Positions 2,740-55,225 are shown, numbered from the stretch's first letter. The stretch: DNA of 63,413 nt from Planctomycetaceae bacterium (GCA_005791575.1 SXWA01000142.1:1-63413), one strand, 5' to 3'. The notes: generated by a model from the letters alone, not told the origin. Translations and numbers: made by a program.

Positions 2740-3714
2740 GTGAACGACCTGCACACGGTGGTCCTCGTGACCGGGGTGCTCGGCCTGCTGCTGGTGGCGA
2801 CCGCGGTGGGGCAATTCCTCGCCCGCCGGTCGGACCGCGGCGTTGATCAGGGGGCCGTCCGTGCGTTCAACCAGCGGCTCCGCGGCTGGTGGATCATGGG
2901 TGGGCTGCTGGCGGTGGCCTTCTGGCTGGGGGTGACCGCGACGGTCACGCTCTTTGGCCTGGTGTCGTTCTGGGCCCTGCGTGAATTCATCACCCTCACC
3001 CCGACGCGCCGCGGCGACCACCGGGCGCTGTTCTGGGTGTTCGTGCTGTTCACGCCGGTGCACTACGTGCTCGTGGCCTACAACCGCTACGACGTGTTCA
3101 GCGTCTTCCTCCCGGTCTATGCCACGCTGTTCGTCCTCGCCCGGGTGGCCTTCACCGGCGACTACACCCGGTTCCTCGAACGCACGGCGAAGATCCAGGC
3201 GGGACTGGTGGTGTGCGTGTACTGTGTGTCGTTCGCCCCCGCCCTGCTCCAGCTGCCGACCGGCACCACGGCGCCCGGGAGCGGCAACTTCCGCCTCCTC
3301 TTCTTCCTCATCCTCCTGGTGCAGTTCTCCGACGCCATGCAACACGTCTGGAGCCGGCTCATCGGCCGTCGGCTCGTGGCGGAGGAGGTGAGTTCGAATC
3401 GCACCTGGGAGGGCCTGCTCGGCAGCGCCACCTCGACGGCGCTCCTCGCCGCGGCGCTGTGGTGGGCCGCGCCCCCCTACGAGCCGTGGCAGGCGGCCCT
3501 CGCCGGTTTCGTCATCGCCCTCCTCGGCTTCGCCGGGGGAATGACGATGGCGGCCATCAAGCGCGACCGGGGGGTCAAGGACCACGGCACGCTCGTGGTC
3601 GGACACGGCGGCGTGCTCGACCGGATCGACTCACTGTGCTTCGCCGCGCCGGTGTTCTATCACCTCACGCTGGCCGTCTCGCGAGCCGCTGCGACACCGC
3701 TCACCGGCGGCTGA
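2740..3714 (+). CDS. cdsA: phosphatidate cytidylyltransferase
   Basis: GTG start 3 nt after the plsC stop, with AAGGAG upstream. Multi-TM protein with the C-terminal signature KRDRGVKDHGTLVVGHGGVLDRIDS. Confidence 0.9.
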   Translation: MNDLHTVVLVTGVLGLLLVATAVGQFLARRSDRGVDQGAVRAFNQRLRGWWIMGGLLAVAFWLGVTATVTLFGLVSFWALREFITLTPTRRGDHRALFWVFVLFTPVHYVLVAYNRYDVFSVFLPVYATLFVLARVAFTGDYTRFLERTAKIQAGLVVCVYCVSFAPALLQLPTGTTAPGSGNFRLLFFLILLVQFSDAMQHVWSRLIGRRLVAEEVSSNRTWEGLLGSATSTALLAAALWWAAPPYEPWQAALAGFVIALLGFAGGMTMAAIKRDRGVKDHGTLVVGHGGVLDRIDSLCFAAPVFYHLTLAVSRAAATPLTGG

Positions 3715-4655
3715 GCATCTGCCCCGTCGGCATCGACCACGCCGGGACGGCGGGCCTGGAGGGCGTAGATCGACCGCCGCCCGGGAAGGCTGGCCACGGC
3801 GGCGGCTGGCGGCACGGGATCGGGACTCTGGCCACGCCCGCGGGCCGACCAGTCTCCTGCCGGGCCGGTCATCGGCGGGGCGGCGGCGACCAGCGCGGCG
3901 GGTGGCGCCGGGCAGCCCTGCCTGACCCAGTCCAACCACAGTCCCTGGAGCCGCGGCACGTCGGGCAGGCCATAGTGGCGGCCGAGCGCACCCGACCAGT
4001 CGTTGCTTGCCAGACCGTCGCCAACGAAGGCCACATAGCGGCGACGGCCTCCGCGCTCGATGAGGAACCGGGCGAGGGAGTAGCCCTGCGCGTAGAGCGG
4101 GAGCACGTCGGCCGGATACTCGCGCATCGCGAACATCTCCGGGAAGGCGATGCCGCGCTGCGTGGTCAGGAACTCGATCAGAAGCCGGTGCTGCCGGGCC
4201 CGCTCCACCGGATGCTCGACGGTGGTGCACGCCCCCTCGTCGGCCCAGCGCGGCAGTGGACGGCGGAAATGGCTCGCGAAGATCGTGTGGGTGATCTCGT
4301 GGGGCAGGACCGAGTCGAGGATCCGCTCCTCACTGCCCTGGATCGACATCGTCCAGCCGAACACCTCTCCGGCATCGAAGACGAAACTCGTCGCCCCGCC
4401 GGCTCCGAGCTGCGGTGCGACCTGGGCGCGGATCGGGCAGGGGCGGCTCCAGCGGGGCAACGGCCCGCCGAGCCATTCGATCGCCAGATCATGCCGGTAC
4501 TGCTCCGCGGCATCACCGATCCGCCGCGCCTGCTCCGGCGTGGGGGCGTCGACGATGAAGTTCGCGGTGCGGTACCCGGCCGCCAGCACCGGACCGCCTC
4601 CCAGCAGGGCTGCCAGCCAGGCCAGGCACAGACCCTTGATCGAACGACGCAGCAT
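3660..4655 (-). CDS. secreted gluzincin-like HExxH protein (putative metallopeptidase)
   Basis: GGAGA lies 9 nt upstream of the ATG. Signal peptide MLRRSIKGLCLAWLAALLGGGPVLAAG. HEITH motif followed by WADEG (candidate third ligand Glu). Pro/Ala-rich tail. Confidence 0.6.
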   Translation of the reverse strand: MLRRSIKGLCLAWLAALLGGGPVLAAGYRTANFIVDAPTPEQARRIGDAAEQYRHDLAIEWLGGPLPRWSRPCPIRAQVAPQLGAGGATSFVFDAGEVFGWTMSIQGSEERILDSVLPHEITHTIFASHFRRPLPRWADEGACTTVEHPVERARQHRLLIEFLTTQRGIAFPEMFAMREYPADVLPLYAQGYSLARFLIERGGRRRYVAFVGDGLASNDWSGALGRHYGLPDVPRLQGLWLDWVRQGCPAPPAALVAAAPPMTGPAGDWSARGRGQSPDPVPPAAAVASLPGRRSIYALQARRPGVVDADGADAQPPVSGVAAARETASVR

Positions 4656-4812
4656 GACCTGCCGTCTCCGTGTGAGTCGGTCCGCCGCGGACGTGGCCTC
4701 CGGCCACGATGCCGCCGCGGCGAACCGCGAACCGCGCCGTCACACGGGGTGCCGCGGTCCACGAGCGGGGCGGACACTAGCGGAGGCCCGCAAACCGGGG
4801 CCAGACCGCTTT

Positions 4813-7800
4813 TCAGCGGGCTTTCGCCCTTGCACGGACGCGGCGCACCGCACTGGCGATCGCCGCCACGAGGAGGAGCGCCAGCGAGGCCAGCGCCCGT
4901 CCGGTCACGCTCCGGTCGGGCCCGCGGGCAAGACGGAACTCGACCCGTTGACCGTCCGGTGGGGCGATCACCGTCGCCCCGGTCTCGAAGACGTCGGTGG
5001 TGCCGATGGCGGCCTGCCCGGTGGGGTCGTTCGCCGGCAGCGACGGGGGACGACGGCGCGCGGCGAGCATGTCGCCGAGGCGCGCTGCCTCCCCCGGGGC
5101 GGCCGCGGCGATCGCCCGGGCGAAATCGTTCCCCAGGCGGTCGAGCGCGGCGGTCCGCTGGAGCTGGGCGGCCGCAGGATCCACTACCGTCGCCGGCGGG
5201 GCAACCCGGACGCTCAACCCCCGTGGCACCGCGATCGTCCACAGGCTCGCGACCGCGGTCAGGCCGTCGATGCCAGGCGCCTCCAACCGCGTGAGCCGCC
5301 CCCCCTCGACGGCCGTCCCCAGGTCACCCGCGAAGACCACCTCAAGCGAGCGCGGCCAGCGCACGTCGAGCAACCGCACTTCCCACAACGGAGCGGCCGC
5401 GGTGCCGGCGGGGCGTGGATCGGTCACCGCCCGGCCATCGACGAACACCTTGAACGGGCGCATCCCCGGGGGGAGCGACACACGCACGACCGGATCGCTG
5501 ACCACGAGGTCGAGCCGCGCGGTGCCCCAGCCGCGCCCCCGGGCATCGATCGCCAGATGGGTATCGACCAGTTCGAGCCGGGGCCCCGCCGGTGCGCTTT
5601 CGGCATCGGCCTCCGCGGTGGCCCCAGCCTGGGCCCCAGCCTGGGCCCCAGCCTGGGCCGCGGGCTCGGGAACCGGCTCGAGCGGCACGAACGGCACTCC
5701 CACCAAGCGGTAGTCGGGGGCGGGCGACTCGGCCGTCAGTTCGACCACGCCCGCTGCAGCCGCCTCGGATCCCCCGACCTCGGCCGCCATGCCATCGGCA
5801 GCCGCCCACGAGATCACCGCGGCGCTGGCGCCGTCGAGCGCCAGACGCATCACCGGCAGCACCCCCTCGGCGGGAGGCGGCCCCGGCACGACCGCCTCGG
5901 CATCGAGACGCAAGCGCCCTGCCTGCGGCTGCTGGAGCACGACGGTGAGCCGGACCGGCGACGGTGGCCCCCCGGGCACCACCGCCGCGCGCACGATCCG
6001 CACGTCGAGCGGCCGCCGGGGCCCGTCGGTGGAGGTCTCGTCGGTGAGGATCACCTTTCCCAGTTGCACATCGGCGGGCAGGGAGAGCGGAATGGTCACC
6101 ACCGCGGACTCGGCCTCGATGCGGGCCTGGAGCGCGAGATCCACCCGCCGCGGCCCGAGCGCCAGGCGCACCTGCTGGCTGGCACGGACGACGGCCGGAC
6201 CGCGCGTGACGATCACCCGCGTGCTTCCCGCGACCGGCACGCGCGCCGGCAGCGGCTCCGCGGGGGCGGCGGCATCCGCCGTGGTGGTGTCCACGCGCCA
6301 TGACAGTTCGCCCCCGGGCGCCGTCGTCCGACCGCCGTTGCCGAGGCCCGCCTGCGGCAGCACCCCGGCGCGCAGTCCGGGCGCCGCCATCAGCCGGACC
6401 GACCGGTCGTCGGCGAGGGGTGTCTCGAGCCAGACCTCCGGCACGGTGAACACGCCGGTGGGCTCGTCGAGCGGCATCGTCCAGGCGATATCGAGACGGA
6501 CGATCCCCGCCTCCGGCTCGCGGCGGACGATGCGGAAGCGGCCGGGACCGATCCGGTCGATCTCGGCATCGGCATCGTCCGGCACCACCGGCACCAGTCG
6601 GGGATCGGCCCGCACCACCACCGCCGGCAGCACCGCCTCGCCGGCATCGATCTCGAACCGCGCGGTCACGCGACAGCTGGTCGGCCCCCACTCGATCTCG
6701 TTGCGGCTGCGGGCCGAACGCGGCACGGTGGCCAGGCGGACACCCGGCTTGAGCGCGGCGAGCACGGCGATCCGGTCGGCGCCCGAGATGTCGAACTGCG
6801 GCGGCTCACCGGCACTCCAGGCCGACTCCGGCAGCACCGGCACGAACGCCGTCCCCGGCCTTCCCGCCTCGACGACAGGCTCAACCGGCAGCCCGCCGGG
6901 CCCCGACGTGAGCACCGCCTGGGGAGCGGGGGGGAGTGCGATCATCGCCACGACGATCTCGCCACGCCGGATCCGGATCGGCTCGGCGACCCACTCCACC
7001 CGGTGCCTTCCCGACTCCACGATCGGCAGCCGGGCGCTCCCCGGCCCCGCCGGCAGCATGGTGGCGGGGCGGCCGTCGAGCAGCACCCCTGCCGCCGGCG
7101 CGGCGGCCTGGCCCGGAAACGGCAGGCTCAGGCTGGTGCCCGCGTCGGCGTCGATGTCGAGCGTCACGTGCCATCCCGCGCCGCCGCCGGGCCCCGGCAA
7201 TTCGACGTGCGCCGCCACCACCCGCGGGGCGTTCTCGTCGGCGACGGCGCCGAGGCGGTCAAAGAGCCGCTGCGGAACGAGTGCGGTGGGCGTGCCGCCG
7301 ACGGGCGTGATGAACACCCGGGGAACCTCGGCCTGCTCCTCTCCGCACGCCGGACCACCCACGAACGACGCCAGTGCCACACCCACGATCCCGAGACCAC
7401 GATGCCTCCCGGCAAGGAGGCGCGACAGTGCCACGGCAAGCGTTGCCCACCACACTGCCCGCGCCGGCACATGCCAGGGCGCGGGAACCCAGAGGGCGAT
7501 CAGCCCGGCCGCCAGCGGCACGACCACCATGAACCCCGGTCGCCACACGGCAGCGAGGAGGAGGCAGCCGGCGAGGAAGGTCGCGAGCAGGAGTGCGGCG
7601 CGGTCGATGTCGTTGCGGCCCACGAGCCGGACCCGGTCGGCGGCCGGGCGGCCCGGCAACGGCACGAACACCCGCTCGCGGCAGCCGGCCATCAGGCCAC
7701 CGAGTCGATCGACCGTCGCGTCGTCATCCATGGGAGCGGAAGAGTGATTCAGCGGCACACCGACGAGGCGCTCGCTCCAGGTGACCGCGGCCGGGGCCAC

Positions 7801-10686
7801 CTCCCGGTGATGCGCCGGTCCGACGGCGATCTCCACGCCGGGAGGAAGCCACACGCGCCACGAGCGCTCGAGCACTGGCAGATCGATCGCCCCGCCGGCG
7901 GAATCGACCGTCCACGTGCCGACGGTGGTGTCATCGGCCACGGTCCGCACCGTGAGCGCCACCCGGCGACGGTCGCCGGGCAGGTCGATCGTCACCTCGC
8001 CGCCGACCGTCTCCGCATCGAGCACCACGCGCCGCCCGTCGAGGAGGATTCCCAGGAGCCGCTTCCCCGGGGGCAGCATCAGCGCGAGGGAACTGCGCCC
8101 GTGGTTCTCGATGTCGAAGTGCGATTCCACCTCGGTCCTGCCCGACCGATGGCACCAGCAATCGACGGCCTCCGACCAGACCCAGGCGCGGGCGTCGCGG
8201 TCGCTGCCACCGCCGTCGGGCACGATCTCCAGCGCCGCGCCGTCGATCGAGGCAGATTCTGCCGCAGCGGCGTCGAAGCCGAACTCCGCGATCACGTCGT
8301 CAGTGGAGCCCGGCGCCGCCGGACCGGGGGGCAATTCGGTGAGACGCCGGTTGACCACCGCCGGCCGCCGCCGGCCGGAGGTGCGGACGACGATGTCGCC
8401 GACAAGATCGACGGCGCCATCGACCCGCACCAGCGGCACGGCCGTCGCCCCGTCGAGCGACACGCTGCGCGTGGCACGGATCGAGACCGGCTCCCGCACC
8501 GGGGGCACGAACTCCACCAGCCACGACGTTTCCCCTCCCCGTCGCCCCGCCATCTCGAGCGGCCGGGCGACGACGCTGCCCCCGGCCGGAGGCAGGAGCG
8601 ACCATTCGAGCGTGTCCTCGATCGGCTCGGAGAAATGAACCACCGCGGCGTCGAGCGGGGATTCCCCGGGCCGGCACTCGAGCGTGAACGACTCGGCGAC
8701 CCGGTCGTCGCGGACCGACAGGCCGATGTGCGCGTGGACGGCGATCGGCGGTCGGCGCTGCACCAGCCGTGCCTCGGCAGCGGGAAGGCCGACTCCCGCA
8801 GGCAGCCACGAGCGGACGGTCTCCTGGCCGGCGAGCCGCTGCAGCCGGGCGGCCACCGGCGGCAGGGCCGCGGGAGCGGGATCGATCTCGAGCGTCGTGT
8901 CGGGTGCGGCGCGGAGGGCGAGCGCTGTCTGCCCATCGGCTTCGCCATCGAGCGCCACCATCTCCAATTCGCGGATCGGGAACGCCACCCCGACGTCGAC
9001 TCCGGCGCGGTGCCCGGTGATCCGCAGTCCGAGCGGCCGCTGCCGCGTGGCTGCGGCCGCCAGACCGATGCGGAGCAGGCTGCCGCCACCATCGGCGGTC
9101 ACCCGCCAGTCGAGCCCCTCCTCGACGAGACCGGTGGTCTCGCCGGCGGAAATCGCCGCCGACCCGGCGGACTGATCGACCGGCTCGACCCACTCGACCG
9201 CGTCGATGATCCACCCCGAGCCGACCCGGCCGCTGAGGGCGAAGGCCTCGCCGCGCTCGACACGCACGTCGCAGGTGGCCACGCCCGAAAGACGGGCCGC
9301 GGCGACGTCCACGGTCGTGACGCGGGCCATGTCGAGGAGTGGACCGCGCGGTTCGAGGGCCACGCGGCACCCCGCAGCCGGCCCCTGGGCAGCCAGATAC
9401 ACCGCCGCCACCCCGTCGCCGTCGTCATCCACACGGGGCAAGGGCCACGCCGCAGCGACCCCCGGGGAGACCACCACGGCATCCTCGGTGACGAGTCCGA
9501 CGAGGGCCAGCGCCGCATCGAGCCGCAGGCTCGTACCCCCGCCGCTCCACGCATCCGCTGCCACCGTGACCCGTGGCAGTCCGACGGTCTGCGGGACTGC
9601 CGCCGGCGCGATGCCGACCACTTCCACCGGCGCGGTGCTCCCGAGCAAGGCCGCCGGAAGGATCACCTCCACCCCGCCCGTGGTCCGCCGCCAGGCGAGG
9701 TCACGGTGGCGAACGGGTCCATCGGCGACGCGCGCCGACAACAGTGTCAGCGCGGGATCGACGACCAGCGCGAGGCGCGGCTCGGTCCACCGGCCCGTGG
9801 GTTGGATCACCGTCGTGACCCGGGTCTCCTCGAGGCCGATCCGGCAGGCCGCCCAGACCCGCGCGTCGCGGGGCTGCGGATCGTCCGGAAGGAGGCCGAA
9901 GACCAACTCATCCTGCGGCCCGATCACCGCCCGCCAGGTGCGAACGGCCGGGGTCGTCGCCGGCTCGGCAACGGCGGTGCCGAGCGGACCCGGCACGACC
10001 AGCGACCATTCCACCCCTCCCCCGCAGGGCCGTTGGCCGGAGGGCACGTCGAGTTCGACTTCCGTCCGCACGGCCGGCACCAGCGGCAGACGCTGGAACG
10101 GCATGCCCCACCGGGCCCGGCCGGCGCCACCGGGTGTGGCCAGCGCGAATTCGCAGCGGTAGGTGCCGGGTCCCGCCAGCACCAGCGCCGTCAGCCCGCT
10201 GCGCAGCGCGTGCACCACCGTCGGCCCGGTACCGGCCGCGGTCTCCCGGCTGGCACGACGGACGAGGAGGTGACCGACGGTCACCTGGGCGGGGAGATGA
10301 ACGGCGTCCTCGGGCACCACGAACGACATCTGTCCCGTCAGCCTGCCGGCGGTGTCGAAGCGGCCCACGACACGGGCACCGCTCGCCACCGGCCGCAGCG
10401 GGCCACCGGCCGCGGCCGCAGCATCGGGGCGCACACCCGCCAACGACTCGACCGCCCGCTCGAACTCGGTCAGCGGCATCGGCACGTAGCGTTCGCCACC
10501 CATCCCGACCTCGGCAAGGCGGCCCGCGGGCACATGGACCCGCGTGAAGGTCCGCGGCCCCGCGGGGTCGGGCAGCGGCGGGTCGTCCACCGGTTCGGCG
10601 GCGGCGACCGCGACGAGGAGTGCCGGGACCGACACCAGGGCAGCGACGCACCACCAGAAAGACCGTCTGCAGAACGGGCGACTCAT
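4813..10686 (-). CDS. giant envelope protein P2 (1957 aa), unknown family, two modules separated by an internal TM cluster
   Basis: ORF 4813..11808 trimmed to the ATG at 10686, which overlaps the upstream stop as ATGA. N-terminal signal MSRPFCRRSFWWCVAALVSVPALLVAVAAA. Internal hydrophobic cluster encoded at about 7330-7610. C-terminal anchor ALASLALLLVAAIASAV followed by RRVRARAKAR. Confidence 0.7.
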   Translation of the reverse strand: MSRPFCRRSFWWCVAALVSVPALLVAVAAAEPVDDPPLPDPAGPRTFTRVHVPAGRLAEVGMGGERYVPMPLTEFERAVESLAGVRPDAAAAAGGPLRPVASGARVVGRFDTAGRLTGQMSFVVPEDAVHLPAQVTVGHLLVRRASRETAAGTGPTVVHALRSGLTALVLAGPGTYRCEFALATPGGAGRARWGMPFQRLPLVPAVRTEVELDVPSGQRPCGGGVEWSLVVPGPLGTAVAEPATTPAVRTWRAVIGPQDELVFGLLPDDPQPRDARVWAACRIGLEETRVTTVIQPTGRWTEPRLALVVDPALTLLSARVADGPVRHRDLAWRRTTGGVEVILPAALLGSTAPVEVVGIAPAAVPQTVGLPRVTVAADAWSGGGTSLRLDAALALVGLVTEDAVVVSPGVAAAWPLPRVDDDGDGVAAVYLAAQGPAAGCRVALEPRGPLLDMARVTTVDVAAARLSGVATCDVRVERGEAFALSGRVGSGWIIDAVEWVEPVDQSAGSAAISAGETTGLVEEGLDWRVTADGGGSLLRIGLAAAATRQRPLGLRITGHRAGVDVGVAFPIRELEMVALDGEADGQTALALRAAPDTTLEIDPAPAALPPVAARLQRLAGQETVRSWLPAGVGLPAAEARLVQRRPPIAVHAHIGLSVRDDRVAESFTLECRPGESPLDAAVVHFSEPIEDTLEWSLLPPAGGSVVARPLEMAGRRGGETSWLVEFVPPVREPVSIRATRSVSLDGATAVPLVRVDGAVDLVGDIVVRTSGRRRPAVVNRRLTELPPGPAAPGSTDDVIAEFGFDAAAAESASIDGAALEIVPDGGGSDRDARAWVWSEAVDCWCHRSGRTEVESHFDIENHGRSSLALMLPPGKRLLGILLDGRRVVLDAETVGGEVTIDLPGDRRRVALTVRTVADDTTVGTWTVDSAGGAIDLPVLERSWRVWLPPGVEIAVGPAHHREVAPAAVTWSERLVGVPLNHSSAPMDDDATVDRLGGLMAGCRERVFVPLPGRPAADRVRLVGRNDIDRAALLLATFLAGCLLLAAVWRPGFMVVVPLAAGLIALWVPAPWHVPARAVWWATLAVALSRLLAGRHRGLGIVGVALASFVGGPACGEEQAEVPRVFITPVGGTPTALVPQRLFDRLGAVADENAPRVVAAHVELPGPGGGAGWHVTLDIDADAGTSLSLPFPGQAAAPAAGVLLDGRPATMLPAGPGSARLPIVESGRHRVEWVAEPIRIRRGEIVVAMIALPPAPQAVLTSGPGGLPVEPVVEAGRPGTAFVPVLPESAWSAGEPPQFDISGADRIAVLAALKPGVRLATVPRSARSRNEIEWGPTSCRVTARFEIDAGEAVLPAVVVRADPRLVPVVPDDADAEIDRIGPGRFRIVRREPEAGIVRLDIAWTMPLDEPTGVFTVPEVWLETPLADDRSVRLMAAPGLRAGVLPQAGLGNGGRTTAPGGELSWRVDTTTADAAAPAEPLPARVPVAGSTRVIVTRGPAVVRASQQVRLALGPRRVDLALQARIEAESAVVTIPLSLPADVQLGKVILTDETSTDGPRRPLDVRIVRAAVVPGGPPSPVRLTVVLQQPQAGRLRLDAEAVVPGPPPAEGVLPVMRLALDGASAAVISWAAADGMAAEVGGSEAAAAGVVELTAESPAPDYRLVGVPFVPLEPVPEPAAQAGAQAGAQAGATAEADAESAPAGPRLELVDTHLAIDARGRGWGTARLDLVVSDPVVRVSLPPGMRPFKVFVDGRAVTDPRPAGTAAAPLWEVRLLDVRWPRSLEVVFAGDLGTAVEGGRLTRLEAPGIDGLTAVASLWTIAVPRGLSVRVAPPATVVDPAAAQLQRTAALDRLGNDFARAIAAAAPGEAARLGDMLAARRRPPSLPANDPTGQAAIGTTDVFETGATVIAPPDGQRVEFRLARGPDRSVTGRALASLALLLVAAIASAVRRVRARAKAR
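5621..5656. repeat. 12-bp in-frame tandem repeat x3 (gccccagcctgg) inside P2
   Basis: Three perfect contiguous units, read on the coding strand as (AQAG)n. Confidence 0.9.
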
Positions 10687-13600
10687 GGCGTGGCCCGCCC
10701 GGCTGCCGTGGGAGGATCGCCGACCGCGGGCGAGCGCCCGGAGTCGGCGCTCACGACCAGCCGCGTCGACGACTGCGGCGACACCACCAATGACGGCCGC
10801 GCCGGAGCGGTGATCCGCGCCGGCCGTTCGACGATCCAGCGGAGCAGCGCCGCCAGCGCCGCGAGGATCGCGCCGGGCAGGGCAGCCTGGACCACCAGCG
10901 GGGCGAGTTCGGGATTCACAGCGGCGGCTGTCACCACGAGGGTGGCGGCCCCGACGATCACGGCGGGTTGCCGCGCCGCCGCGCGGTACACCGCCACGAG
11001 GCCGAGGGCGAGCGTCGGCCCCGAGGCGGCGAGCACGAGCAGCCAACTCGGCACGATCCAGGCGCGTCCGGGTTCGACGCTGCCGATGCCCGACCAGACG
11101 GCGCGCCGTTCCGCCAGCGGTGGATCGAGCGCGGTCACGGCGATCGGCCCGGGCGCCGGGGTGGTCTCGCCGGGGTGGTCGGTGGCGGCTCGCCGGTTGG
11201 CCTCCAACCACCTTGCCAGCGCCGCCCGGGAGACGACCGGCCGGCGCTCGAATCCCAGCCCTCCCCAGGCCCAGCGCTGCTGGCTCGTCCAGGGGCGCGG
11301 GGGCAGGATCACGTGCTCGTCGGCGAGCAGGCGCAGTTCCCAGTAGAAACGGCGCTGCACAACGCCTGTGGGCATCAGCGGGGGATCGAGCAGCAACGGC
11401 CCGACCCATCCCGCCGCCCGTGGCCAGCCCGGCACGACCGATGGCTCCCGACCCCGGCGGCACTCCACGGCGACGATCCAGCTCCCCCGGCCGGCCGCGT
11501 CCGCCGGTGTGCCGGGCAGCTCGACGGTCATCCGCCCATCGGTGCGGACCGCGGTCGCGACGGGCCGGCCATCGACGCGCACCTCGATCGTCGCGGGGCG
11601 GTCGGCTGCCGGCCGCCATCCGGCCGGAACGGTCAGATCGAAGCGCCGCGACGAGCTGCTCACCGTGTAGGTGCAGACATCCTCGCGACCATCGGGGAGG
11701 AGTCGTGTCTCGAACCACGCCGCCTCGATCACGGTATCGCCGCGCGACGTGCCCTGCCGCGCCGAAACCGCCAGCGGCACCACACCCTGCGGCCGGCCGC
11801 TGGTCCACACGCGGGCCGTCGCGGCCTGGAGCGTGTCACGTTCCCAGGCCTCGCCGCGGACATCGACCACCAGCGGCCCCTCGACAAGCAGCGACAGCGA
11901 CTGCCTCACCACCCGCCCCTCGGCCGGCAACACCAAGGGGAGATCCATCGATGCGGTGGCCTCGGCCGGCACGGCGACCATCGGCAGTTCGTAGCGGATC
12001 GTCAGATCGCCGGAGCCGAGCAGGGGCTGGGGAAGCAGGGCACGAAGATTGACGGGGCCGGCGCCCTCCGCCGGCGCCGAGGATTCGCCACGGCGCCCCG
12101 CCAGCGGGGTGGGGAACGGGTTGAGCGGCTGCCCGCCCTGCCGCAATTCGAGCGCGCCCCCCTCGGCCACGGCGGCCGGAACGACGATGTCGATCGATTC
12201 CAACGGCACGTGTGCCACGTCGTAGCGGATCGTCTCCTCGACCACGGCGGTGTCGGCGTTGATCGTCACGGCGGCGGCGACGACCGCCTCGACGCGCTGG
12301 GCGAGATAGCGGCGGTCGGCGGCGAACTCCCCGTCCGTCCCGTCGAGACGGTACGTCAGCACCGCACGCTCCCCTTCCTCGCGCCGCGCCGAGGGGGTCG
12401 TCTGCCGCACCAGACCGCGGATCGCCGTGGCATCGGGAACGATCTCGATGTCGTTGGCCGCCGACACGCTCACGCTCGCCGGCGCCACCAGATCGGCCTC
12501 CGGCACCGGGAGCGTCCATGTCAGCCGCCGGGCATCGCGCTCGAGGGTCCTCCCGCAGCGGATTTCGATCGTCGCATCGCCGGTGAGTGGCTGGAGAAAC
12601 GGGATCACGAGCAGTCCGTCTTCGGCGCGGATCGCCGCGCTGTCGACGAGGCCGGCGGGCGAGACGTCGTCGATGCCCCACCCCTCGAGCCGCACCCCGA
12701 TGCGGTTCACGGGAGCCCCACGCACCGAGAGCCTGAGGCGCGCGTCGAGTCCGAGGCGACTGGGATCGACCGTGTAGCGGTACTCCGGTTCCACGACGAC
12801 GCGGCTGCCGCGCGGCCGCACATGGATCGGCAACGTGGCGGGTTGGGTGTCGTAGGCGAAGGCGGCGGAGAGCCCGGGACGCCGCGCGGCCGGCGGCGGA
12901 TCGACCCGCCGGTTGCGTCCGGCATCGTCCCATTCGAGTTGCCAGTCCCCCTCGACCAGCAGGCTGACCCGGCCATGCTGCCGCCAGGGCAGGATCTGTT
13001 CCACCATGAATCCGAGCGGTTCCAGCGCCCTTCCCTCGGGATCGATCGACCGCTCGGCATCGATCTCCAGCGCTACCCTGCCGTCGGCCGACCGCGCCAC
13101 GTCGATCGCGAGGCGCTCGACCGACTGCGATCCAGCGCCGTCGGGATCGACCGTCTCCCGGCTCACGAGTGTCGCACCGCGGACGGCACGCAGCGCCGCG
13201 CCGGGAGGCATGGTGACGGAGATGCGCGAGAGATCGGCGGGGAGTTCCCGGAGCGCGATCAGCGTCTGCCACGCCGCCATCCGACCGTCGATCCGCACCA
13301 CGCTCTCGACGGTGGCCTCGGGCGCCGCGCCCGCCGACGCCTGCGCGGTCCCCCGCGGGCCGATCCGGATCCGTGTCGACCCGATCAGCCCCACGCAGGT
13401 CACGCGACTGCCGCCCGCCCCGTCGGATTCGACCCGTGGCTCCACGCTGCCGGGAGTGACCGTCACCACGGGATCCGGACGCGACGACCGGATCACCACG
13501 GCCGACGCGGTCGCGGGGGGCAGACGGAGCCACACCGACTGCTCGTCGCCGGCCGCCTCCACCGGCAACTGCCCCTCGAGGCCGACGCGATGGCGCCCGT

Positions 13601-14261
13601 CAGCCGGACCTTGAAACCAGCAGCGGTATCCAGGTTGGGGGGCCGGCACGGGGTCGCCGTCCGCGATCGAATCGACCGCTTTCGGGGCCACCGCCTCGGC
13701 ATCGACCACCGCCGTCCCCTCCCCTTCGTGCCGCGGGGGGGCGTCGAGCACCAGTCCCGCGAGTTCGAGTGGCAGGGTGGACCACCCCGCGCGCGTCTGC
13801 CGGACCGTGGCATCGACCACCGTCCGGCAGCTGGGCGCGCCACCGTCGGGAGGCGGCAGGTCGATGGTGACCGTGAGCGACTCGAGGATGGCCGGCGGTG
13901 GCTGGACGACAGCCGGCAGGCCCTGCCGCAGCCGAACCATCTCCACGAAGTCGGCGTAGCCGAACCCCGGCACGGGAACGAGGCGGCCGGCTTCATCCTC
14001 CACGTAGAAAATGTCGGGGACAGTGGCCTCGACGCGTGACGGAGAGCGGGGCGGCGTCACCGCGGTCCCCTGGGGGCCGGCAGCGCCCCCGGCCGCCGGC
14101 TGTTGGTCACCGATCGGCAGCGCTTCGGCCGCCGGAGCGTCCGCTGCCCCGACCGGGTCGTCGGCGCGTCCCGCCGGCGCCCACGCGACGAGCAGGCAGC
14201 TCACCAGCACCCAGCGCAACGCCGGACCGGCAGCGCGGTGGTGGTCCAGTGGGGCTCGCAT
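10683..14261 (-). CDS. giant envelope protein P1 (1192 aa), unknown family
   Basis: ORF 10683..15329 trimmed to the ATG at 14261, with GGAGGA 9 nt upstream. Signal peptide MRAPLDHHRAAGPALRWVLVSCLLVAWAPAGRA. C-terminal multi-TM region WLLVLAASGPTLALGLVAVY ... AILAALAALLRWIV. Confidence 0.7.
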   Translation of the reverse strand: MRAPLDHHRAAGPALRWVLVSCLLVAWAPAGRADDPVGAADAPAAEALPIGDQQPAAGGAAGPQGTAVTPPRSPSRVEATVPDIFYVEDEAGRLVPVPGFGYADFVEMVRLRQGLPAVVQPPPAILESLTVTIDLPPPDGGAPSCRTVVDATVRQTRAGWSTLPLELAGLVLDAPPRHEGEGTAVVDAEAVAPKAVDSIADGDPVPAPQPGYRCWFQGPADGRHRVGLEGQLPVEAAGDEQSVWLRLPPATASAVVIRSSRPDPVVTVTPGSVEPRVESDGAGGSRVTCVGLIGSTRIRIGPRGTAQASAGAAPEATVESVVRIDGRMAAWQTLIALRELPADLSRISVTMPPGAALRAVRGATLVSRETVDPDGAGSQSVERLAIDVARSADGRVALEIDAERSIDPEGRALEPLGFMVEQILPWRQHGRVSLLVEGDWQLEWDDAGRNRRVDPPPAARRPGLSAAFAYDTQPATLPIHVRPRGSRVVVEPEYRYTVDPSRLGLDARLRLSVRGAPVNRIGVRLEGWGIDDVSPAGLVDSAAIRAEDGLLVIPFLQPLTGDATIEIRCGRTLERDARRLTWTLPVPEADLVAPASVSVSAANDIEIVPDATAIRGLVRQTTPSARREEGERAVLTYRLDGTDGEFAADRRYLAQRVEAVVAAAVTINADTAVVEETIRYDVAHVPLESIDIVVPAAVAEGGALELRQGGQPLNPFPTPLAGRRGESSAPAEGAGPVNLRALLPQPLLGSGDLTIRYELPMVAVPAEATASMDLPLVLPAEGRVVRQSLSLLVEGPLVVDVRGEAWERDTLQAATARVWTSGRPQGVVPLAVSARQGTSRGDTVIEAAWFETRLLPDGREDVCTYTVSSSSRRFDLTVPAGWRPAADRPATIEVRVDGRPVATAVRTDGRMTVELPGTPADAAGRGSWIVAVECRRGREPSVVPGWPRAAGWVGPLLLDPPLMPTGVVQRRFYWELRLLADEHVILPPRPWTSQQRWAWGGLGFERRPVVSRAALARWLEANRRAATDHPGETTPAPGPIAVTALDPPLAERRAVWSGIGSVEPGRAWIVPSWLLVLAASGPTLALGLVAVYRAAARQPAVIVGAATLVVTAAAVNPELAPLVVQAALPGAILAALAALLRWIVERPARITAPARPSLVVSPQSSTRLVVSADSGRSPAVGDPPTAAGRATP

Positions 14262-14282
14262 CGATGACCGTCCTCCCTCGCC

Positions 14283-14362
14283 GCCGTCTGTCGTGTCGCC
14301 GTCTGTCGTGTCGCCGTCTGTCGTGTCGCCGGATGTCTGTGTCGCCGTCTGTCTGTGTCGCC
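14283..14362. repeat. 15-bp tandem array (gccgtctgtcgtgtc x3 perfect plus 2 degenerate 16-bp units)
   Basis: Read directly from the sequence. It begins 22 bp upstream of the P1 start codon, in the 250-bp gap to the suhB-like gene. Confidence 0.9.
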
Positions 14363-14512: not shown

Positions 14513-15298
14513 TCAGGGCGCCGCCGGCAGCAGCGCCAGGAGCGCAGCGGCGAGCGGGCGGCTGGCGGCCGCCATGAAAGCCGGCTGCTCGAGGGACACC
14601 CGTGGCCCGCTGCCGGGGGGCATGGCGACGACCGTTCCCCCCGCCTCGGCAACGAGCAGCAACCCCGCCGCCACGTCCCACGGCGCGATCGCGCGGATCC
14701 AGAAGGCATCGAACCTGCCGCAGGCGACATAGGCGAGATTGATCGCCGTCGAGCCGGTCCGACGGATCGCCTGCACGGCGGGAAGCACCGCCAGGAAATC
14801 GACCACGCTGGGCGCGTCGGGGCCGACGTGTGGGGGAAACCCGACCGCGACCAGCGATTCGGGCACCGACTCCACGGATGACACTCGGATCGGACTGCCG
14901 TTGAGATGGGCACCGCCGCCGGCACGGGCCGTGAAACACTCGTCGCGCACGGGGTCGTAGATCGTGCCGACGAGGATCTCGTCGCCTCGCGCCAGCGCCA
15001 CCGACACGCAGTAGGCGGGGACGCCGTGCACGTAGTTCGTGGTGCCGTCGAGCGGATCGACGAACCAGCGCAGCTGCCCGGGCGCGGCGGTCACGTGCCC
15101 CCCTTCCTCGCCGATGAAGCCGTGGTCGGGAAAGGCGCCGAGGACGATCCGCCGGATCTCCGCCTGCGCCGCGTGATCGGCCTCGGTCACCAGATCGCGC
15201 GGTCCCTTCGCCGACACCGCGAAGCGGCCGACCCATTCCCCGAGGACCCGGCCCCCGGCCCGGGCGGCGGCCTCGCACACCTCCAAGTGATCGGCCAT
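14513..15298 (-). CDS. suhB: inositol monophosphatase family protein
   Basis: ORF 14513..15484 trimmed to the ATG at 15298, with GGAGGA 6 nt upstream. Motifs FVDPLDGTTNY and WDVAAG. Confidence 0.85.
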   Translation of the reverse strand: MADHLEVCEAAARAGGRVLGEWVGRFAVSAKGPRDLVTEADHAAQAEIRRIVLGAFPDHGFIGEEGGHVTAAPGQLRWFVDPLDGTTNYVHGVPAYCVSVALARGDEILVGTIYDPVRDECFTARAGGGAHLNGSPIRVSSVESVPESLVAVGFPPHVGPDAPSVVDFLAVLPAVQAIRRTGSTAINLAYVACGRFDAFWIRAIAPWDVAAGLLLVAEAGGTVVAMPPGSGPRVSLEQPAFMAAASRPLAAALLALLPAAP

Positions 15299-15482
15299 CC
15301 CTCGTCCTCCACGCACGCGTCCACAACACCGGACCGGCAGTCTACCCCGCGGGCTGCTGCTCACGACGGCGGCCGCTCCGGGCGGCCGCCGCGCCACCCC
15401 CGGCGAGTCGCCATCGCTACACTGTCGGGTTGTTTGCCCGTCCGACATCCACACGTCGCGATTTCGCCCCGGAGGCGCCGTC

Positions 15483-16232
15483 ATGCCCCGTTCCGCTCCA
15501 GCGGCGCCGCCACAGGGCTGGCATGCCGGTGATCAGGGCTTCACCAGTCGCGGCAGCGGCGGTGGTGGCGGCAGCGTGACGGTCGTCGTCGATCCCGATC
15601 ATCCACGGGGGGGATTGAGGCTCAGTGGGCCGGCCTCCGCGGATGCGATCCTCGGCCTCGACATCGACGGCGCCGCGATCGATCACTGGGTGCGCGGCGA
15701 CGACCTGAGCGCGGTCTACGAACCGGTCGACGCGCGCCGGCTGCGGGCGAGCGCGATGTGGCGCCGCCTCCCCCCACCCGACGCCACCGTCGGCGGCACC
15801 GACCAGGTGAGCGCGTGGCTGCTGGTGGCATCGGCGCAGACCGGCCTCCTCGACAGCGACCCGCGCCTCGATGTCGTCAGCCGGCTGTCTGGAGGGGTGA
15901 TCCGCTGGGGACACCGCGGAGACCATCCGGGAGATCGCGAGGTGGTCTGGAGGGACGGGCCAGCCGCCGGCACACATGCGGTACTCGTCCGGGAATCGGC
16001 CGACCGGTCGATCCTGATCGCCGTCCACCCGGGCGACTACCGGGGGCTCGACACGGTCACGACGGCGGGGCGGACCGTCGTCCGCTGCGGTTTGTTCGGC
16101 GACAGCCTGGAAAAAGGGGTTCTCCTCCGCGGCCGGGTGCTCGGCGCCATCGGTCCGCGAGCCGGCGACGAGGTCTGGGCTGGGCGGCTGATCGACCGGT
16201 TCGTGGCGACCCCCCCCCCGCTGACGACGTGA
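15483..16232 (+). CDS. hypothetical protein
   Basis: GGAGG 7 nt upstream of the ATG. GC3-rich codons and balanced composition. No motif recognised. Confidence 0.5.
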   Translation: MPRSAPAAPPQGWHAGDQGFTSRGSGGGGGSVTVVVDPDHPRGGLRLSGPASADAILGLDIDGAAIDHWVRGDDLSAVYEPVDARRLRASAMWRRLPPPDATVGGTDQVSAWLLVASAQTGLLDSDPRLDVVSRLSGGVIRWGHRGDHPGDREVVWRDGPAAGTHAVLVRESADRSILIAVHPGDYRGLDTVTTAGRTVVRCGLFGDSLEKGVLLRGRVLGAIGPRAGDEVWAGRLIDRFVATPPPLTT

Positions 16233-32126: not shown

Positions 32127-34226
32127 TCAGGGAGCCGCGGCGGGCGGCAGCGTCCAGCCGTGCATGAAGAGGTTCCGCGCGTCGACGTAGCGGGCGTCGG
32201 TGGTGGTCGATCCGAGCACCACCACCACCAGCGCGCGACCGTCGCGCTCCCCCCAGGCCGCCAGGCAGCACCCGGCGACGGCGGTCGTGCCGGTCTTCAC
32301 GCCGGAATAGCCTTCGATCGGCAGGAGGCGATTGGTGTTCTTCCAGACCACCGGCCGCCGCGAGCCATCGACCGACTCGATCGTCGCCCCGCGCTGCCGG
32401 GTGGCGACGATCGCGCGGAACAGCGGCAGCTCCATCGCCACGCGCACCAGCGCCGCGATCTCGGCGGCAGTCGTCTCGTGGCCCGGGGCGGTCTTGCCGT
32501 GGGTGTTGCGGTAGCTGGTGCGGGCGAGCCCCAGTTCGGCGGCGGTGGCGTTCATCCGGGCGACGAACCGGTCGAGCGGATCGACGGCCACCCCGTCCGC
32601 TGCGGCAGCCCCTGTGAGCCGGGCCCCGACATGCTCCCCCAGCGCCACCGAGGCGTCGTTGCCGGAGGGCAGCATGAGGCCGTAAAGCATCTCGCGGACG
32701 GAGACCCGGTCGCCGGGCCGGAGCATCGCCGACGATCCGGTTTCCTGCCCGGCCCGGGTCGAGACCGTGATCATCTCGTCGAGCAGGCCGGGCGCCGCCG
32801 CGGCTTCACGGAGCACCACCAGCGCGGTCATCACTTTCGTGATGCTGGCGGGCGACCGGCACGTGTCGGCATCGCGGCCGGCCAGGCGCCGTCCCGTGGC
32901 CGCCTCGACGATCACCCACGACGGCGCCGTGGTCTGCGGCGGCCCGCCGCCCGCGTCGGCCGCCGCCACCGGGAGCCGCTCGGCGTTCACCGTCTCTGCA
33001 TCGGGCAGGGGCGGATCGGCGGTGATCAGCGTGCCCAGGGCGCGCCACGTGGCGGCATCGACAATCCCGCTGCCGGGCAGCCCGCTCTCATCCTGCAAGC
33101 GGCGCACCGCAGCGGCAGTGGCGGGACCGAAGTCACCATCCACACCGAGCCGGGCCGCAGCCGGCAGGCGGGCGTTGAGCGAGCGCTGCAGTTCCTCGAC
33201 CACCACACCCGATGCTCCCTGAGCGAGCGGCTGCGGGCTGGCAGGACGGTCCTCCGCGTGCCGGGCGGCGAAGTAGGCGGCGATCTCCCGACCACAGGCG
33301 GCGATCAGGTCCTCCGCCGCCCCGCCGTCGATGCGCCGATCCTTGTTGTCGGTGGTGAGGAGGCAGTAGGCCACCGGCCCCCCGGGGCCGAGGAGGATGC
33401 CGGCGTCGGTGCGCGAGCCGGAGACACCGCCCGTCTTGTGGGCACAGCGCCATCCGGCCGGCAGCTCGCGCGGCACCATCCGGGTGTCGTCGCAGGCGAG
33501 GAGATGGGAGAGGATCGCGGGCGTGCTGCCGGCGGGGATGATCCCCCGCGCCTCCAGCTCACCGCCGTGGAGCAGGGAGAGGAGGCGGACGAATTCCGCC
33601 GCGGTCCCGCTCCCCAGTCCGTAGAGGCGGCTGCGCTCGGGATCGAGTGAGGTGTCGCGCCGGTAGACGAGTGAATTGAGCCGGATCTCCCTGAGCCCGA
33701 GGTCGGCCATCAGCGCCGTCGTCGCCGGTCGGCCGATCCGCTCGACCACGAGATTCGTGGCGGTGTTGTCGCTGGCGGCGATCATCATCCTGATCCAATC
33801 GACCAGCGGCAGTTCGGCCCCGTCCGACAGGAGATCGACCACGCGTGAGCCCGGCACGCGGTCGCCGGCAGCGAGCGGCACCCGGTCGGTGAGCGCCACC
33901 CGCCCCTCCTTCACCGCCCGGTAGGCGGCGAGCATCACCGGGAGCTTCACCAGGCTCGCCGTCGGCATCGCCTCGTCGGCGCGCAGCGCGTAGCGCTCAC
34001 CGGTGGGCAGATGCTCGACCGCCACCGCCACCCGTCCCTCGTGGGCGTTGATCAGCGGCAGGAGCGCGTCCTCGAGCGAATCGGCCGACTCGGTCGCCAC
34101 GGCGCTGCCGGCCGCGGCAGGACCGAGAAGGAGCAGCAGCAAAAGCGCCGACGACTGGATCGCGCGGGCCACCCGGTCGCACCCCATCCGGCATCCGCAG
34201 CGCATGCGCATCGCTCGTCTCCTCAT
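32127..34226 (-). CDS. tri-domain PG hydrolase: class A beta-lactamase-fold + PG_binding_1 + S11 D-Ala-D-Ala carboxypeptidase
   Basis: Signal peptide present. Domain 1 has SLVK / SDN / KTGG. The middle has GVDGDFGPATAAAVRRLQ. Domain 3 has SITK / SGND / KTGTT. The ATG overlaps the epimerase stop (ATGA). Confidence 0.8.
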   Translation of the reverse strand: MRRRAMRMRCGCRMGCDRVARAIQSSALLLLLLLGPAAAGSAVATESADSLEDALLPLINAHEGRVAVAVEHLPTGERYALRADEAMPTASLVKLPVMLAAYRAVKEGRVALTDRVPLAAGDRVPGSRVVDLLSDGAELPLVDWIRMMIAASDNTATNLVVERIGRPATTALMADLGLREIRLNSLVYRRDTSLDPERSRLYGLGSGTAAEFVRLLSLLHGGELEARGIIPAGSTPAILSHLLACDDTRMVPRELPAGWRCAHKTGGVSGSRTDAGILLGPGGPVAYCLLTTDNKDRRIDGGAAEDLIAACGREIAAYFAARHAEDRPASPQPLAQGASGVVVEELQRSLNARLPAAARLGVDGDFGPATAAAVRRLQDESGLPGSGIVDAATWRALGTLITADPPLPDAETVNAERLPVAAADAGGGPPQTTAPSWVIVEAATGRRLAGRDADTCRSPASITKVMTALVVLREAAAAPGLLDEMITVSTRAGQETGSSAMLRPGDRVSVREMLYGLMLPSGNDASVALGEHVGARLTGAAAADGVAVDPLDRFVARMNATAAELGLARTSYRNTHGKTAPGHETTAAEIAALVRVAMELPLFRAIVATRQRGATIESVDGSRRPVVWKNTNRLLPIEGYSGVKTGTTAVAGCCLAAWGERDGRALVVVVLGSTTTDARYVDARNLFMHGWTLPPAAAP

Positions 34227-35278
34227 CCTGCCGCTGCCCGGCTCGACGCGGGAAGTGGCCCGTCAAACAACTCCACACCGGTGCCGCTCCCTTGGGGAAA
34301 CACTGCCTTCCCCTCCACCACCCGCACGCCGGTGGCGATGTCGGCGGCGAGCAGTGCGGCACCATCCATGTCGACGTGGTCGAGCAGCGGCAGCAACTGG
34401 GCCAGTGCCGAGATGCCGACCGTCGATTCGGTCATGCAGCCGACCATCACCCCGAGCCCGAGTGACCGGGCCGTGGCGATCATCCGCCGCGCCGGCGCCA
34501 GTCCACCGCACTTGACCAACTTGATGTTGATGCCGTGGAACAGCCCGGCGCAGCGGGCGACATCCCCCTCGGCCGCGCAGCTCTCGTCGGCAAAAACCGG
34601 CAGAGCCGAGTGGCGATGGACGTCCGCCATCCCCGGGTCGCCCGGCGGGAGGGGTTGCTCGATGAACTCGACCCCCAATTCCGCCAGCGGACCGGAGAGG
34701 GCGATCGTCTGATCCACCGTCCAGCCGCAGTTGGCATCGACGCGGAACGGCCGGTCGGTGTGCCGGCGCAGCTCGCGCACGATCGCCAGATCGTCGGCGG
34801 TGCCGAGCTTGATCTTGAAGATCGGCCAGTCGGCTGCGGCCGCGAGCTTCTCGCGCATCACCGCGATCGTGTCGATGCCGATGGTGAAGTTGGACACCGG
34901 TCCCACCGCCCGGTCGAGCCCCCACCAGGTCGCCAGCGGCAGGCCGGCACGGCGGGCGGCGAGATCGTGGAGCGCCATGTCGAGCGCGCAGCGTGCGAAC
35001 GGCTCGTCAGCCAGCTCCGCTTCGAGCCGGGAGAGGGTCTCCGGCAGCCGGGCCGTCGTCGATTCCGCCAACAGTGGCCTGGCCCGCTCGGCGGCGGCAG
35101 CGAGCCGGGGGATCGTCTGCCCGTAGAACGGGTTGGTGGTGGCCTCGCCGTAGCCGTGGAGCCCCCCTTCCGAGAGCTGGACCACGAAGGTGTCCTGCAC
35201 GGCGACGCTGCCCCGCGCGATCGTGAACACGTGGCGCAGCGGCAGCGCGAACGTGGCGTGTGCCATCCCGATGCTCAT
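34223..35278 (-). CDS. enolase-superfamily dipeptide (L-Ala-D/L-Glu) epimerase-like
   Basis: FKIKLG (KxK), VDANCGW, IEQPL, ADES and NIKLVKCGG blocks. ATGA overlap with the DUF1611 stop. Confidence 0.85.
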   Translation of the reverse strand: MSIGMAHATFALPLRHVFTIARGSVAVQDTFVVQLSEGGLHGYGEATTNPFYGQTIPRLAAAAERARPLLAESTTARLPETLSRLEAELADEPFARCALDMALHDLAARRAGLPLATWWGLDRAVGPVSNFTIGIDTIAVMREKLAAAADWPIFKIKLGTADDLAIVRELRRHTDRPFRVDANCGWTVDQTIALSGPLAELGVEFIEQPLPPGDPGMADVHRHSALPVFADESCAAEGDVARCAGLFHGINIKLVKCGGLAPARRMIATARSLGLGVMVGCMTESTVGISALAQLLPLLDHVDMDGAALLAADIATGVRVVEGKAVFPQGSGTGVELFDGPLPASSRAAAG

Positions 35279-55040: not shown

Positions 55041-55225
55041 CCGTGGCCCGGTCATCGAAAAAGTGGTGCCAAAATGGTGCCGCAGGGCACCGAGAGGCCC
55101 CGCAGGAGCCCGCACGGCCAGATGGGCCGCGGGGCGGAAACCGGAGAGTTGCGGCCGAAAACCGCAGATCGCGACCCGATACGAGCGGGTGCGGAAAAAG
55201 CGAAGTGCCCCGTCTAGGACTCGAA
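55041..55225. repeat. proximal direct repeat (tRNA-Lys 3' end plus downstream flank), partner of 50061-50184
   Basis: See the partner feature at 50061-50184. This copy contains an extra segment of about 60 bp relative to the distal copy. Confidence 0.8.

Follow-up and report, generated by a model that had tools for sequence, protein, structure and literature searches.

The stretch of DNA examined here, 63,413 nt from Planctomycetaceae bacterium, a freshwater planctomycete (GCA_005791575.1 SXWA01000142.1:1-63413; referred to as the window, to which all coordinates apply), carries two giant genes, P1 and P2, whose products belong to a large, conserved and unnamed family, which is new but built from known folds and to date comes solely from genomes of uncultured, Pirellulales-type planctomycetes. 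Profile-profile comparison, by which alone the paralogy becomes visible, indicates that P1, the N-terminal half of P2 and the C-terminal half of P2 are three homologous modules. As a function for P1 and P2 we tentatively favor a non-enzymatic, heteromeric periplasmic tether, spacer or docking scaffold. A third gene, P3, is predicted to encode a secreted, MA-clan-like putative metallopeptidase, and is a lineage-specific neighbor of the pair rather than a defining component.

Gene organization

Three coding frames, all on the minus strand, were recognized by a search for open reading frames (ORFs) combined with codon-position composition, given here as the G+C fraction at codon positions 1/2/3:

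10683-14261, minus strand: P1 gene, 1192 aa; 0.78/0.58/0.87
4813-10686, minus strand: P2 gene, 1957 aa; 0.80/0.57/0.87
3660-4655, minus strand: P3 gene, 331 aa; 0.74/0.57/0.85

The locus has a G+C content of 74%, and overlapping long ORFs (many of >300 aa) crowd both strands; P1, P2 and P3 are not spurious high-G+C ORFs, since their codon-position composition is coding-like, and the in-frame stretch 5' of P1 (0.81/0.75/0.60) is not. The ATG of P2 overlaps the stop codon of P1 as ATGA (10683-10686), which argues for translational coupling of the two genes, and a gap of 157 nt, without overlap, lies between the stop codon of P2 and P3. An earlier reading of this DNA by a model, made from the sequence alone (the sequence-only reading), had proposed three co-oriented genes, with P1 and P2 coupled and paralogous; the genes are real and lie on the minus strand, and the coupling and the paralogy, in the form of three modules, are borne out by the ATGA overlap and by the profile comparisons described below.

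Three homologous modules and membrane topology

BLASTP of P1 against P2, and of each protein against itself, gave no signal (best E 2.9). Family alignments of P1 (A1, 44 sequences) and P2 (A2, 42 sequences) were then the input to hhalign, which aligned P1 with the N-half of P2 collinearly from end to end (966 columns; probability 95.9%, E 5.5e-9), the N-half of P2 with its C-half (707 columns; probability 97.3%, E 1.7e-11), and P1 with the C-half of P2 (378 columns; probability 79%, E 1.6e-5). Six reversed-profile controls, in which the extreme Ala/Arg/Pro/Val/Gly composition was kept, all gave E >=0.1 and scores <=27. The juxtamembrane motifs of the three modules are placed in register by hhalign (P1 970-988, P2 941-957, P2 1814-1830), in agreement with the loose pre-anchor motif that the sequence-only reading had seen in all three; N-terminal motifs (GRLVPVPG..DF with ERYVPMPL..EF) and transmembrane helices are aligned as well. 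The parts of the two proteins are as follows:

14163-14261, minus strand: P1 signal peptide, aa 1-33, ending in PAGRA/DD; read from the sequence, with a helix at 12-26 in the structure model; predicted cleavage
13926-14018, minus strand: N-terminal "tip" motif of P1, aa 82-112, PDIFYVEDEAGRLVPVPGFGYADFVEMV; a conservation peak, aligned to ERYVPMPL..EF of P2
11052-13904, minus strand: predicted periplasmic ectodomain of P1, aa 120-1070, all-beta by DSSP and predicted local distance difference test (pLDDT) of the model and by Foldseek
11298-11354, minus strand: juxtamembrane motif of P1, aa 970-988, RRFYWELRLLADEHVILPP; aligned by hhalign to P2 941-957
10830-11045, minus strand: three-helix membrane anchor of P1, aa 1073-1144, from hydropathy, model helices (1072-1144) and charge flanks
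10686-10829, minus strand: predicted cytoplasmic tail of P1, aa 1145-1192 (48 aa), disordered (pLDDT <50), with a conserved SSxTR motif
7606-10596, minus strand: ectodomain of the P2 N-module, aa 31-1027, a full-length homolog of P1 by hhalign
7816-7866, minus strand: juxtamembrane motif of the P2 N-module, aa 941-957, RSWRVWLPPGVEIAVGP; in register with the motifs of P1 and of the C-module
7342-7605, minus strand: internal junction of P2 with four transmembrane helices, aa 1028-1115, from hydropathy and charge flanks; three P1-like helices and a fourth
4897-7341, minus strand: ectodomain of the P2 C-module, aa 1116-1930, a shortened third copy by hhalign and collinearity map
5197-5247, minus strand: juxtamembrane motif of the P2 C-module, aa 1814-1830, SLWTIAVPRGLSVRVAP; aligned to P2 941-957
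4816-4896, minus strand: C-terminal transmembrane helix of P2 and basic cytoplasmic tail (RRVRARAKAR), from hydropathy and charge flanks

The tip motif is the most conserved segment of the P1 ectodomain (P82, Y86, G92, L94-F100, Y102, D104 and F105 are invariant in the P1 family), and equivalents of it open both P2 modules. Conserved residues are also found in the juxtamembrane motif of P1 (R970, R971, F972, Y973, W974, E975, D981 and H983) and in its membrane anchor (S1080, G1087, Y1092, R1097, P1117 and G1130), and S1164 of the tail is nearly invariant. P2 starts with a hydrophobic, signal-like N-terminus; a Tat-like RRSFWW in this region was dropped, as it is not conserved across the family. 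About 190 aa of the N-module (P2 607-800) have no counterpart in the C-module of P2. One of its linkers, of low conservation, contains an exact 12-bp in-frame repeat in 3.3 copies (5620-5659, minus strand), read as (AQAG)n.

The anchor of P1 is flanked by RAAARQ (inside), NPELAP (outside) and RWIVERPAR (inside), and the fourth transmembrane segment of the P2 junction, which resembles a relic signal peptide, has a basic RHRG before it and an acidic GEEQAE after it. By the positive-inside rule, all three ectodomains would be periplasmic and the anchors would lie in the cytoplasmic membrane. A location at the cell surface is unlikely because the anchors are alpha-helical and the topology is positive-inside; of the envelope or surface assembly that the sequence-only reading had expected, the anchoring in an envelope membrane was retained and the surface was not. 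Its C-terminal anchors were likewise found (three helices in P1, one C-terminal helix in P2), a description that understates the four-helix junction in the middle of P2.

Structure model of P1

An AlphaFold2 model of P1, computed from the 44-sequence alignment, has a mean pLDDT of 79, with 905 of the 1192 residues at pLDDT >=70. The ectodomain in this model is wholly beta, with several strands of 23-24 residues, and is followed by three helices; the strand pattern suggests roughly eight beta-sandwich domains. The beta-rich ectodomains and membrane anchoring of the sequence-only reading thus agree with the P1 model and with hydropathy. Repeats within the module (sandwich units of ~100 aa) are weak, with E 4e-4 to 2e-3; a simple tandem array does not describe the module. 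Conservation in the P1 family peaks at the tip motif, in one mid-domain, in the juxtamembrane segment and in the transmembrane helices, and the sequence between these peaks diverges fast; the ectodomain also contains invariant Trp/Arg/Tyr clusters (e.g. W426-R452 and R970-W999).

Comparison of the P1 model with the Protein Data Bank (PDB) by Foldseek gave Ost1/ribophorin I as the best match (E 3e-9 to 3e-8, probability 1.00, ~440-480 columns), within limits set by a TMt of 0.23-0.33 and a root-mean-square deviation of 17-22 A. Further neighbors were integrin-alpha legs, ITIH1, the N-domain of M1 peptidases, PIG-T (E 1e-3) and mu-homology domains; none of these beta-sandwich modules is catalytic, and a transmembrane helix follows several of them. 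Ost1/ribophorin I, with two lumenal beta-sandwiches before its transmembrane helix, and PIG-T may resemble P1 in having tandem non-cytoplasmic beta-sandwiches, then an alpha-helical membrane segment, and no catalytic site, and each is a scaffold within a membrane complex. However, no sequence kinship of P1 with Ost1/ribophorin I is apparent (no Ribophorin_I Pfam match at E <=1, and none among PDB sequences), and P1 is ~3x longer, has three transmembrane helices and belongs to a paralogous pair. No gene for an oligosaccharyltransferase (STT3/PglB-like) or a transamidase was found among the called genes of the listed loci or the scanned ORFs of the window, although no targeted or genome-wide search was made. 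Integrin-alpha legs (E 4e-7 to 1e-4, 730-900 columns) share with P1 a long beta-sandwich leg, a transmembrane segment and a short cytoplasmic tail, the integrin segment being single-pass and integrins working as heterodimers; P1 differs in that a beta-propeller, FG-GAP repeats and a Pfam match are all lacking, and its partner P2 is a paralog and not beta-subunit-like. The N-domain of M1 aminopeptidases (APN, ERAP, LTA4H) matches one P1 domain (probability 1.00, ~230 columns); the features of an M1 peptidase are here split over two proteins that are not consistently linked, the sandwich on P1 and the HExxH motif on P3.

Search for known families

No characterized family could be assigned to P1 or P2, and to this extent the sequence-only reading, which had recognized none, holds (Pfam, NCBIfam, PADLOC, PHROGs and PDB sequences were negative, and there was no match to Bat, alpha-2-macroglobulin or a domain of unknown function (DUF)). 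Searches of Pfam, NCBIfam, PADLOC and PHROGs with P1 and P2 returned nothing above noise, and the same was the case for Pfam on eight diverse P1 homologs, with a single PepSY_TM match at E 0.058; the family profiles of P1 and P2 gave no real match among PDB sequences, and no precomputed Pfam domain is present in 210 P1/P2 homologs among the matches listed. A regular-expression search of P1 and P2 for the CxEQ thioester and for LPXTG and PEP-CTERM-type sorting signals was negative, and neither protein contains an enzymatic motif. In a literature search on planctomycete envelope proteins, ribophorin and crateriform structures, no description of the P1/P2 family was found.

Several candidates were rejected. 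Alpha-2-macroglobulin and Bat proteins share with P1 and P2 that they are large envelope proteins of beta-sandwich domains; for the alpha-2-macroglobulin family there was no Pfam or NCBIfam match and no CxEQ motif (which not every member of that family carries), and Foldseek probabilities were 0.14 (CD109) and 0.33 (C5), with TM-scores (template modeling scores) <=0.09. For Bat/aerotolerance proteins (BatA-D), no vWA, TPR or BatD domain was found in P1, P2 or P3, and no vWA, MoxR or DUF58 genes were found nearby. Adhesins and autotransporters (cadherin, Big, VCBS, RHS, barrel) were set aside for want of a Pfam match and a sorting signal, and the anchors are alpha-helical. Anti-phage defense and phage families gave no PADLOC or PHROG match for P1, P2 or P3.

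Distribution, gene pairing and gene fusions

A word-indexed search recovered at least 300 full-length homologs of P1 and 90 of P2, all annotated as "hypothetical". A profile search with P1 in 1.84 billion representatives matched 2310 clusters (50% identity) at E <=1e-3, and 921 at E <=1e-30; the median length of P1 is 1119 aa (standard deviation 43; 128 representatives sharing <=50% identity). The informative record titles of homologs are all Planctomycetota (Planctomycetia, Pirellulales, Planctomycetaceae metagenome-assembled genomes (MAGs)), and none is from a cultured organism. Six loci from lake MAGs (L015, L016, L031, L040, L047 and L077) bear the record titles "Candidatus Kuenenia stuttgartiensis", "Chitinophaga sp." or "Chitinophagaceae" though they carry Pirellulales-type orthologs; they are apparent mislabels and were not used as evidence of spread.

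Gene order was compared in two sets of loci. The close set comprises 80 species-representative genomes, all uncultured freshwater MAGs, and the distant set 74 further loci, whose P1 shares 26-72% identity with a divergent member and ~27% with P1 of the window; the scan for distant loci was seeded with a narrower alignment (A7), as A6 was too diverse. P2 follows P1 in 43 of the 44 distant loci with room for it, and this pairing, together with natural fusions of the two genes, provides the conserved synteny in relatives whose absence would have refuted the sequence-only reading. The fusions are single ORFs of 3007, 3077 and 3410 aa in three separate clusters, each found in several independent assemblies. 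At their junction, the three transmembrane helices and the tail of P1 (with the SSTR motif kept) are followed by the signal peptide of P2 as a fourth transmembrane helix, and this 3+1 junction is the same arrangement as inside P2. The fusion of P1 with P2 argues, by Rosetta-stone logic, for physical cooperation of the two proteins; P2 itself may be explained as an older fusion of two P1-like genes, because the natural fusions recreate the 3+1 junction.

The genes flanking the three in the window are:

14513-15484, minus strand: inositol-monophosphatase (IMPase)-family gene, upstream of P1 (PF00459, E 2e-59)
2740-3714, plus strand: cdsA, downstream, convergent with P3 and overlapping its 3' end

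In the close set, IMPase-P1-P2-P3 and a convergent cdsA follow one another as far as the contigs reach, and mean identities are ~63% for IMPase, 45% for P1, 35% for P2, 75% for P3 and 79% for CdsA. This adjacency says little about function because the whole housekeeping block is syntenic. The most persistent neighbor of the P1-P2 pair is the IMPase gene, which is located upstream, in the same orientation, in nearly all of the close loci and in 26 of 51 distant ones. Besides IMPase and CdsA, the neighbors include an acyltransferase and an SbcC-like protein. Phospholipid- and inositol-related genes surround the pair: cdsA and a gene for a PlsC-type acyltransferase are repeatedly found close by (L089 among other loci), and IMPase was seen, for example, in L087, L092 and L095. 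In at least 20 distant loci the IMPase gene has, in divergent orientation to it, a gene for a protein of ~235-250 aa without a Pfam domain; this gene was also located in L001 (4923-5630, minus strand), in L136 (7445-8848, minus strand; a stop-to-stop ORF that probably contains the gene) and in the window (~15483-16232, plus strand).

Proposed role of P1 and P2

The favored tether, spacer or docking scaffold would derive from an ancestral gene for a signal peptide, a beta-sandwich rod of ~1000 aa, three transmembrane helices and a short cytoplasmic tail. P1 would have kept this ancestral form, and P2 would consist of two such units fused after duplication, with the signal peptide of the second unit surviving as the fourth transmembrane helix. 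P1 and P2 would be produced together, as subunits of a heteromeric scaffold that has its anchors in the cytoplasmic membrane and points into the periplasm, with three long, flexible, all-beta ectodomains projecting from an eight-helix membrane base. With about eight domains of ~4 nm each, an ectodomain might reach tens of nanometers, and each would present a tip motif and a juxtamembrane motif, both conserved. The scaffold may thereby form a structural link from the cytoplasmic membrane to the wall or the outer membrane in the large and variable planctomycetal periplasm. A structural scaffold is preferred over an enzyme because conservation is focal with fast divergence in between, length is tightly kept, no catalytic motif is present, and the fold neighbors are scaffold-like.

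For this function the favored analogy, one of architecture only, is NOMO: its Ig-like folds form a rod with a transmembrane segment at the C-terminus, and the length of this rod sets the width of the lumen of the endoplasmic reticulum (PMC8327139). Like the proposed P1, NOMO is a type-I protein with a flexible "beads on a string" layout comprising no fewer than eight beta-sandwich domains; unlike P1 and P2 it has one transmembrane segment and does not form a paralogous pair, and it is absent from the best 50 fold matches.

Planctomycetes have an enlarged periplasm and contact sites between inner and outer membrane at crateriform structures (PMC5394234). Proteins responsible for the crateriform contact sites, the enlarged periplasm and the invaginations are not named in that work (PMC5394234), and no later identification was found in the literature searched. 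A decidedly unlikely elaboration of the scaffold would make P1 and P2 the missing envelope-shaping component, i.e. a periplasm-spanning ruler or tether that joins the cytoplasmic membrane to wall and outer membrane at defined sites (e.g. crateriform contacts) and limits the sites of invagination, with the conserved tail coupling it to the cell interior; in a variant, P3 would dock on the M1-N-domain-like sandwiches as a split, membrane-tethered peptidase. Roughly half of the genes of planctomycetes lack a functional assignment. P1 and P2 are a concrete candidate for a part in planctomycete envelope architecture and a new family for the databases; duplication followed by fusion describes their evolution, a topology has been derived for them, and their partnership is backed by gene fusion. 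Should their function prove mundane, the gain would be a better annotation of two "hypothetical" giant genes and caution about the adjacent protease-like gene.

Several points weigh against a scaffold. A predicted TM-score (pTM) of 0.39 for the AlphaFold model of P1 alone leaves the positions of the domains undefined, so that rod shape and length are an interpretation, and the fold matches are to generic beta-sandwiches (TM-scores <=0.33) that do not specify a function. Much of the synteny is vertical inheritance of a core-genome block, which makes the neighbors weakly informative, and no partner in the wall or outer membrane has been identified. The conserved Trp/Arg-rich patches and the conserved transmembrane bundle would fit ligand binding or transport equally. 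The argument as a whole draws on sequence and on a model of P1.

Relationship of P3 to the P1-P2 pair

P3 has an N-terminal signal-like segment, a HEITH motif (aa 119-123) and E140, 17 residues after the second His, and the HEITH motif and E140 are invariant in 30 P3 orthologs. The combination of HExxH with a downstream Glu resembles MA-clan gluzincins; unlike M1 aminopeptidases, P3 has no GxMEN motif. PF13485 (Peptidase_MA_2) matched P3 of the window at 17.2 bits (E 0.0046; cut-off 32.4 bits) and all 30 orthologs, with the scores seen being sub-threshold (17-25 bits; best E 8e-6; 24.6 bits in L001), and a few relatives carry a precomputed PF13485 call. No match was obtained for P3 in NCBIfam, PADLOC or PHROGs; a profile match to CroV588 (6nyr) was rejected as a repeat artefact summed over 15 weak stretches. 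The AlphaFold model of P3 reached a pLDDT of 45.6 from a shallow alignment (30 close orthologs, all >=70% identical). The C-terminal third of P3, beyond the peptidase-like domain, is a Pro/Ala-rich tail; two short motifs in it, RGQSPD and R-x-S-I-Y-A, are invariant in the 30 orthologs and resemble docking motifs. P3 (minus strand) and cdsA (plus strand) are convergent and share 55 nt at their 3' ends (3660-3714), and this pairing is kept where P3 has left P2 (L006).

The sequence-only reading had taken the HExxH gene as an integral part of one system. We consider it unlikely that the three genes form a dedicated envelope assembly with P1 and P2 being processed or matured by the secreted P3. 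Such an assembly would account for the position of P3 directly after P2 in essentially all close-clade loci with room, for its signal peptide, its HExxH...E arrangement and its consistent sub-threshold Peptidase_MA_2 matches, and for the resemblance of P1 domains to the N-domain that packs against the M1 catalytic domain; in one distant locus, L147, P2 is likewise followed by a P3-like gene. However, P3 adjoins P2 in only 1 of the 19 distant loci with a complete P2 and >=2.5 kb downstream; no P3 lies near the fused genes, and L005 and L087 lack it. It has separated from P2 in L006, moving along with cdsA, and in three close loci (L010, L048 and L078) it is inverted. The 157-nt gap to P2, an identity of ~75%, i.e. 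at the rate of the housekeeping genes, versus 35-45% for P1 and P2, and a family far larger than those of P1 and P2 (5991 matches among candidates capped at 8000) likewise speak against a dedicated partner. Adjacency of the HExxH gene to the pair is thus largely confined to the close clade, where the whole housekeeping block is syntenic.

Other functional alternatives

P1 and P2 might also form a periplasmic capture platform, in which arrays of beta-sandwiches bind polysaccharide, other imported macromolecules or peptidoglycan. The all-beta-sandwich ectodomains with their invariant Trp, Arg and Tyr clusters would suit such binding, and planctomycetes import dextran into the periplasm (PMC5394234). 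We regard this as improbable: no Pfam match, including to carbohydrate-binding modules, was found in 11 sequences scanned, and none is precomputed in the 210 homologs among the matches listed; genes for carbohydrate-active enzymes, transporters or TonB-type proteins do not recur in the neighborhood, and the locus is a housekeeping syntenic block, not a substrate-utilization locus.

A transmembrane signaling or transport device, in which the eight-helix base and the SSxTR tail relay information or substrate and the ectodomains act as sensors or conduit (integrin-like, outside-in), is highly doubtful. The transmembrane helices, with invariant Gly, Pro, Ser and Arg, rank among the best-conserved parts, the conserved tail motif is kept in the fusions, and integrin-alpha legs with their transmembrane segment are among the fold neighbors; on the other hand, no kinase, ATPase, response regulator or energizer is consistently found nearby (a LuxR-type gene occurs in L005 only), there is no similarity to a transporter family (the single PepSY_TM match has E 0.058), and the tail is short and disordered.

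That P1 and P2 are spurious long ORFs of a genome of 74% G+C, or decayed genes, as the many overlapping ORFs of >300 aa on both strands might suggest, is already refuted and has practically no probability left, given coding-type G+C at third codon positions only in the P1, P2 and P3 frames, hundreds of full-length homologs at 26-78% identity with conserved length, and a confident fold prediction for P1.

Other features of the window

The sequence-only reading had extended the locus from 3660 to 14362; this range covers the three genes, and its upper end is non-coding, at the edge of a repeat in the P1 leader:

14282-14362, minus strand: 15-bp tandem repeat ACACGACAGACGGCG, 5.3 copies, 92% matches, ~20 nt upstream of the P1 ATG

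The repeat is absent at the same place in the relatives L007 and L009, and is probably a strain-level microsatellite. GGAGGA is found between the repeat and the start codon (14271-14276), 9 nt before the ATG of P1. Promoter and terminator scans of the GC-rich locus were uninformative.

Elsewhere in the window, an ORF of 711 aa (32127-34262, minus strand) combines class-A beta-lactamase-like, PG_binding_1 and D-Ala-D-Ala carboxypeptidase (S11) domains in an unusual fusion of peptidoglycan modules. Two adjacent large SPFH/Band-7 proteins (~650 and ~560 aa) are encoded at 56921-58882 and 58638-60314 (both minus strand; the coordinates are of stop-to-stop ORFs, which overlap), and just upstream of this pair lie a tRNA-Lys(CTT) gene (55205-55279, minus strand) and a stretch of lower G+C content (0.66) at 48-56 kb.

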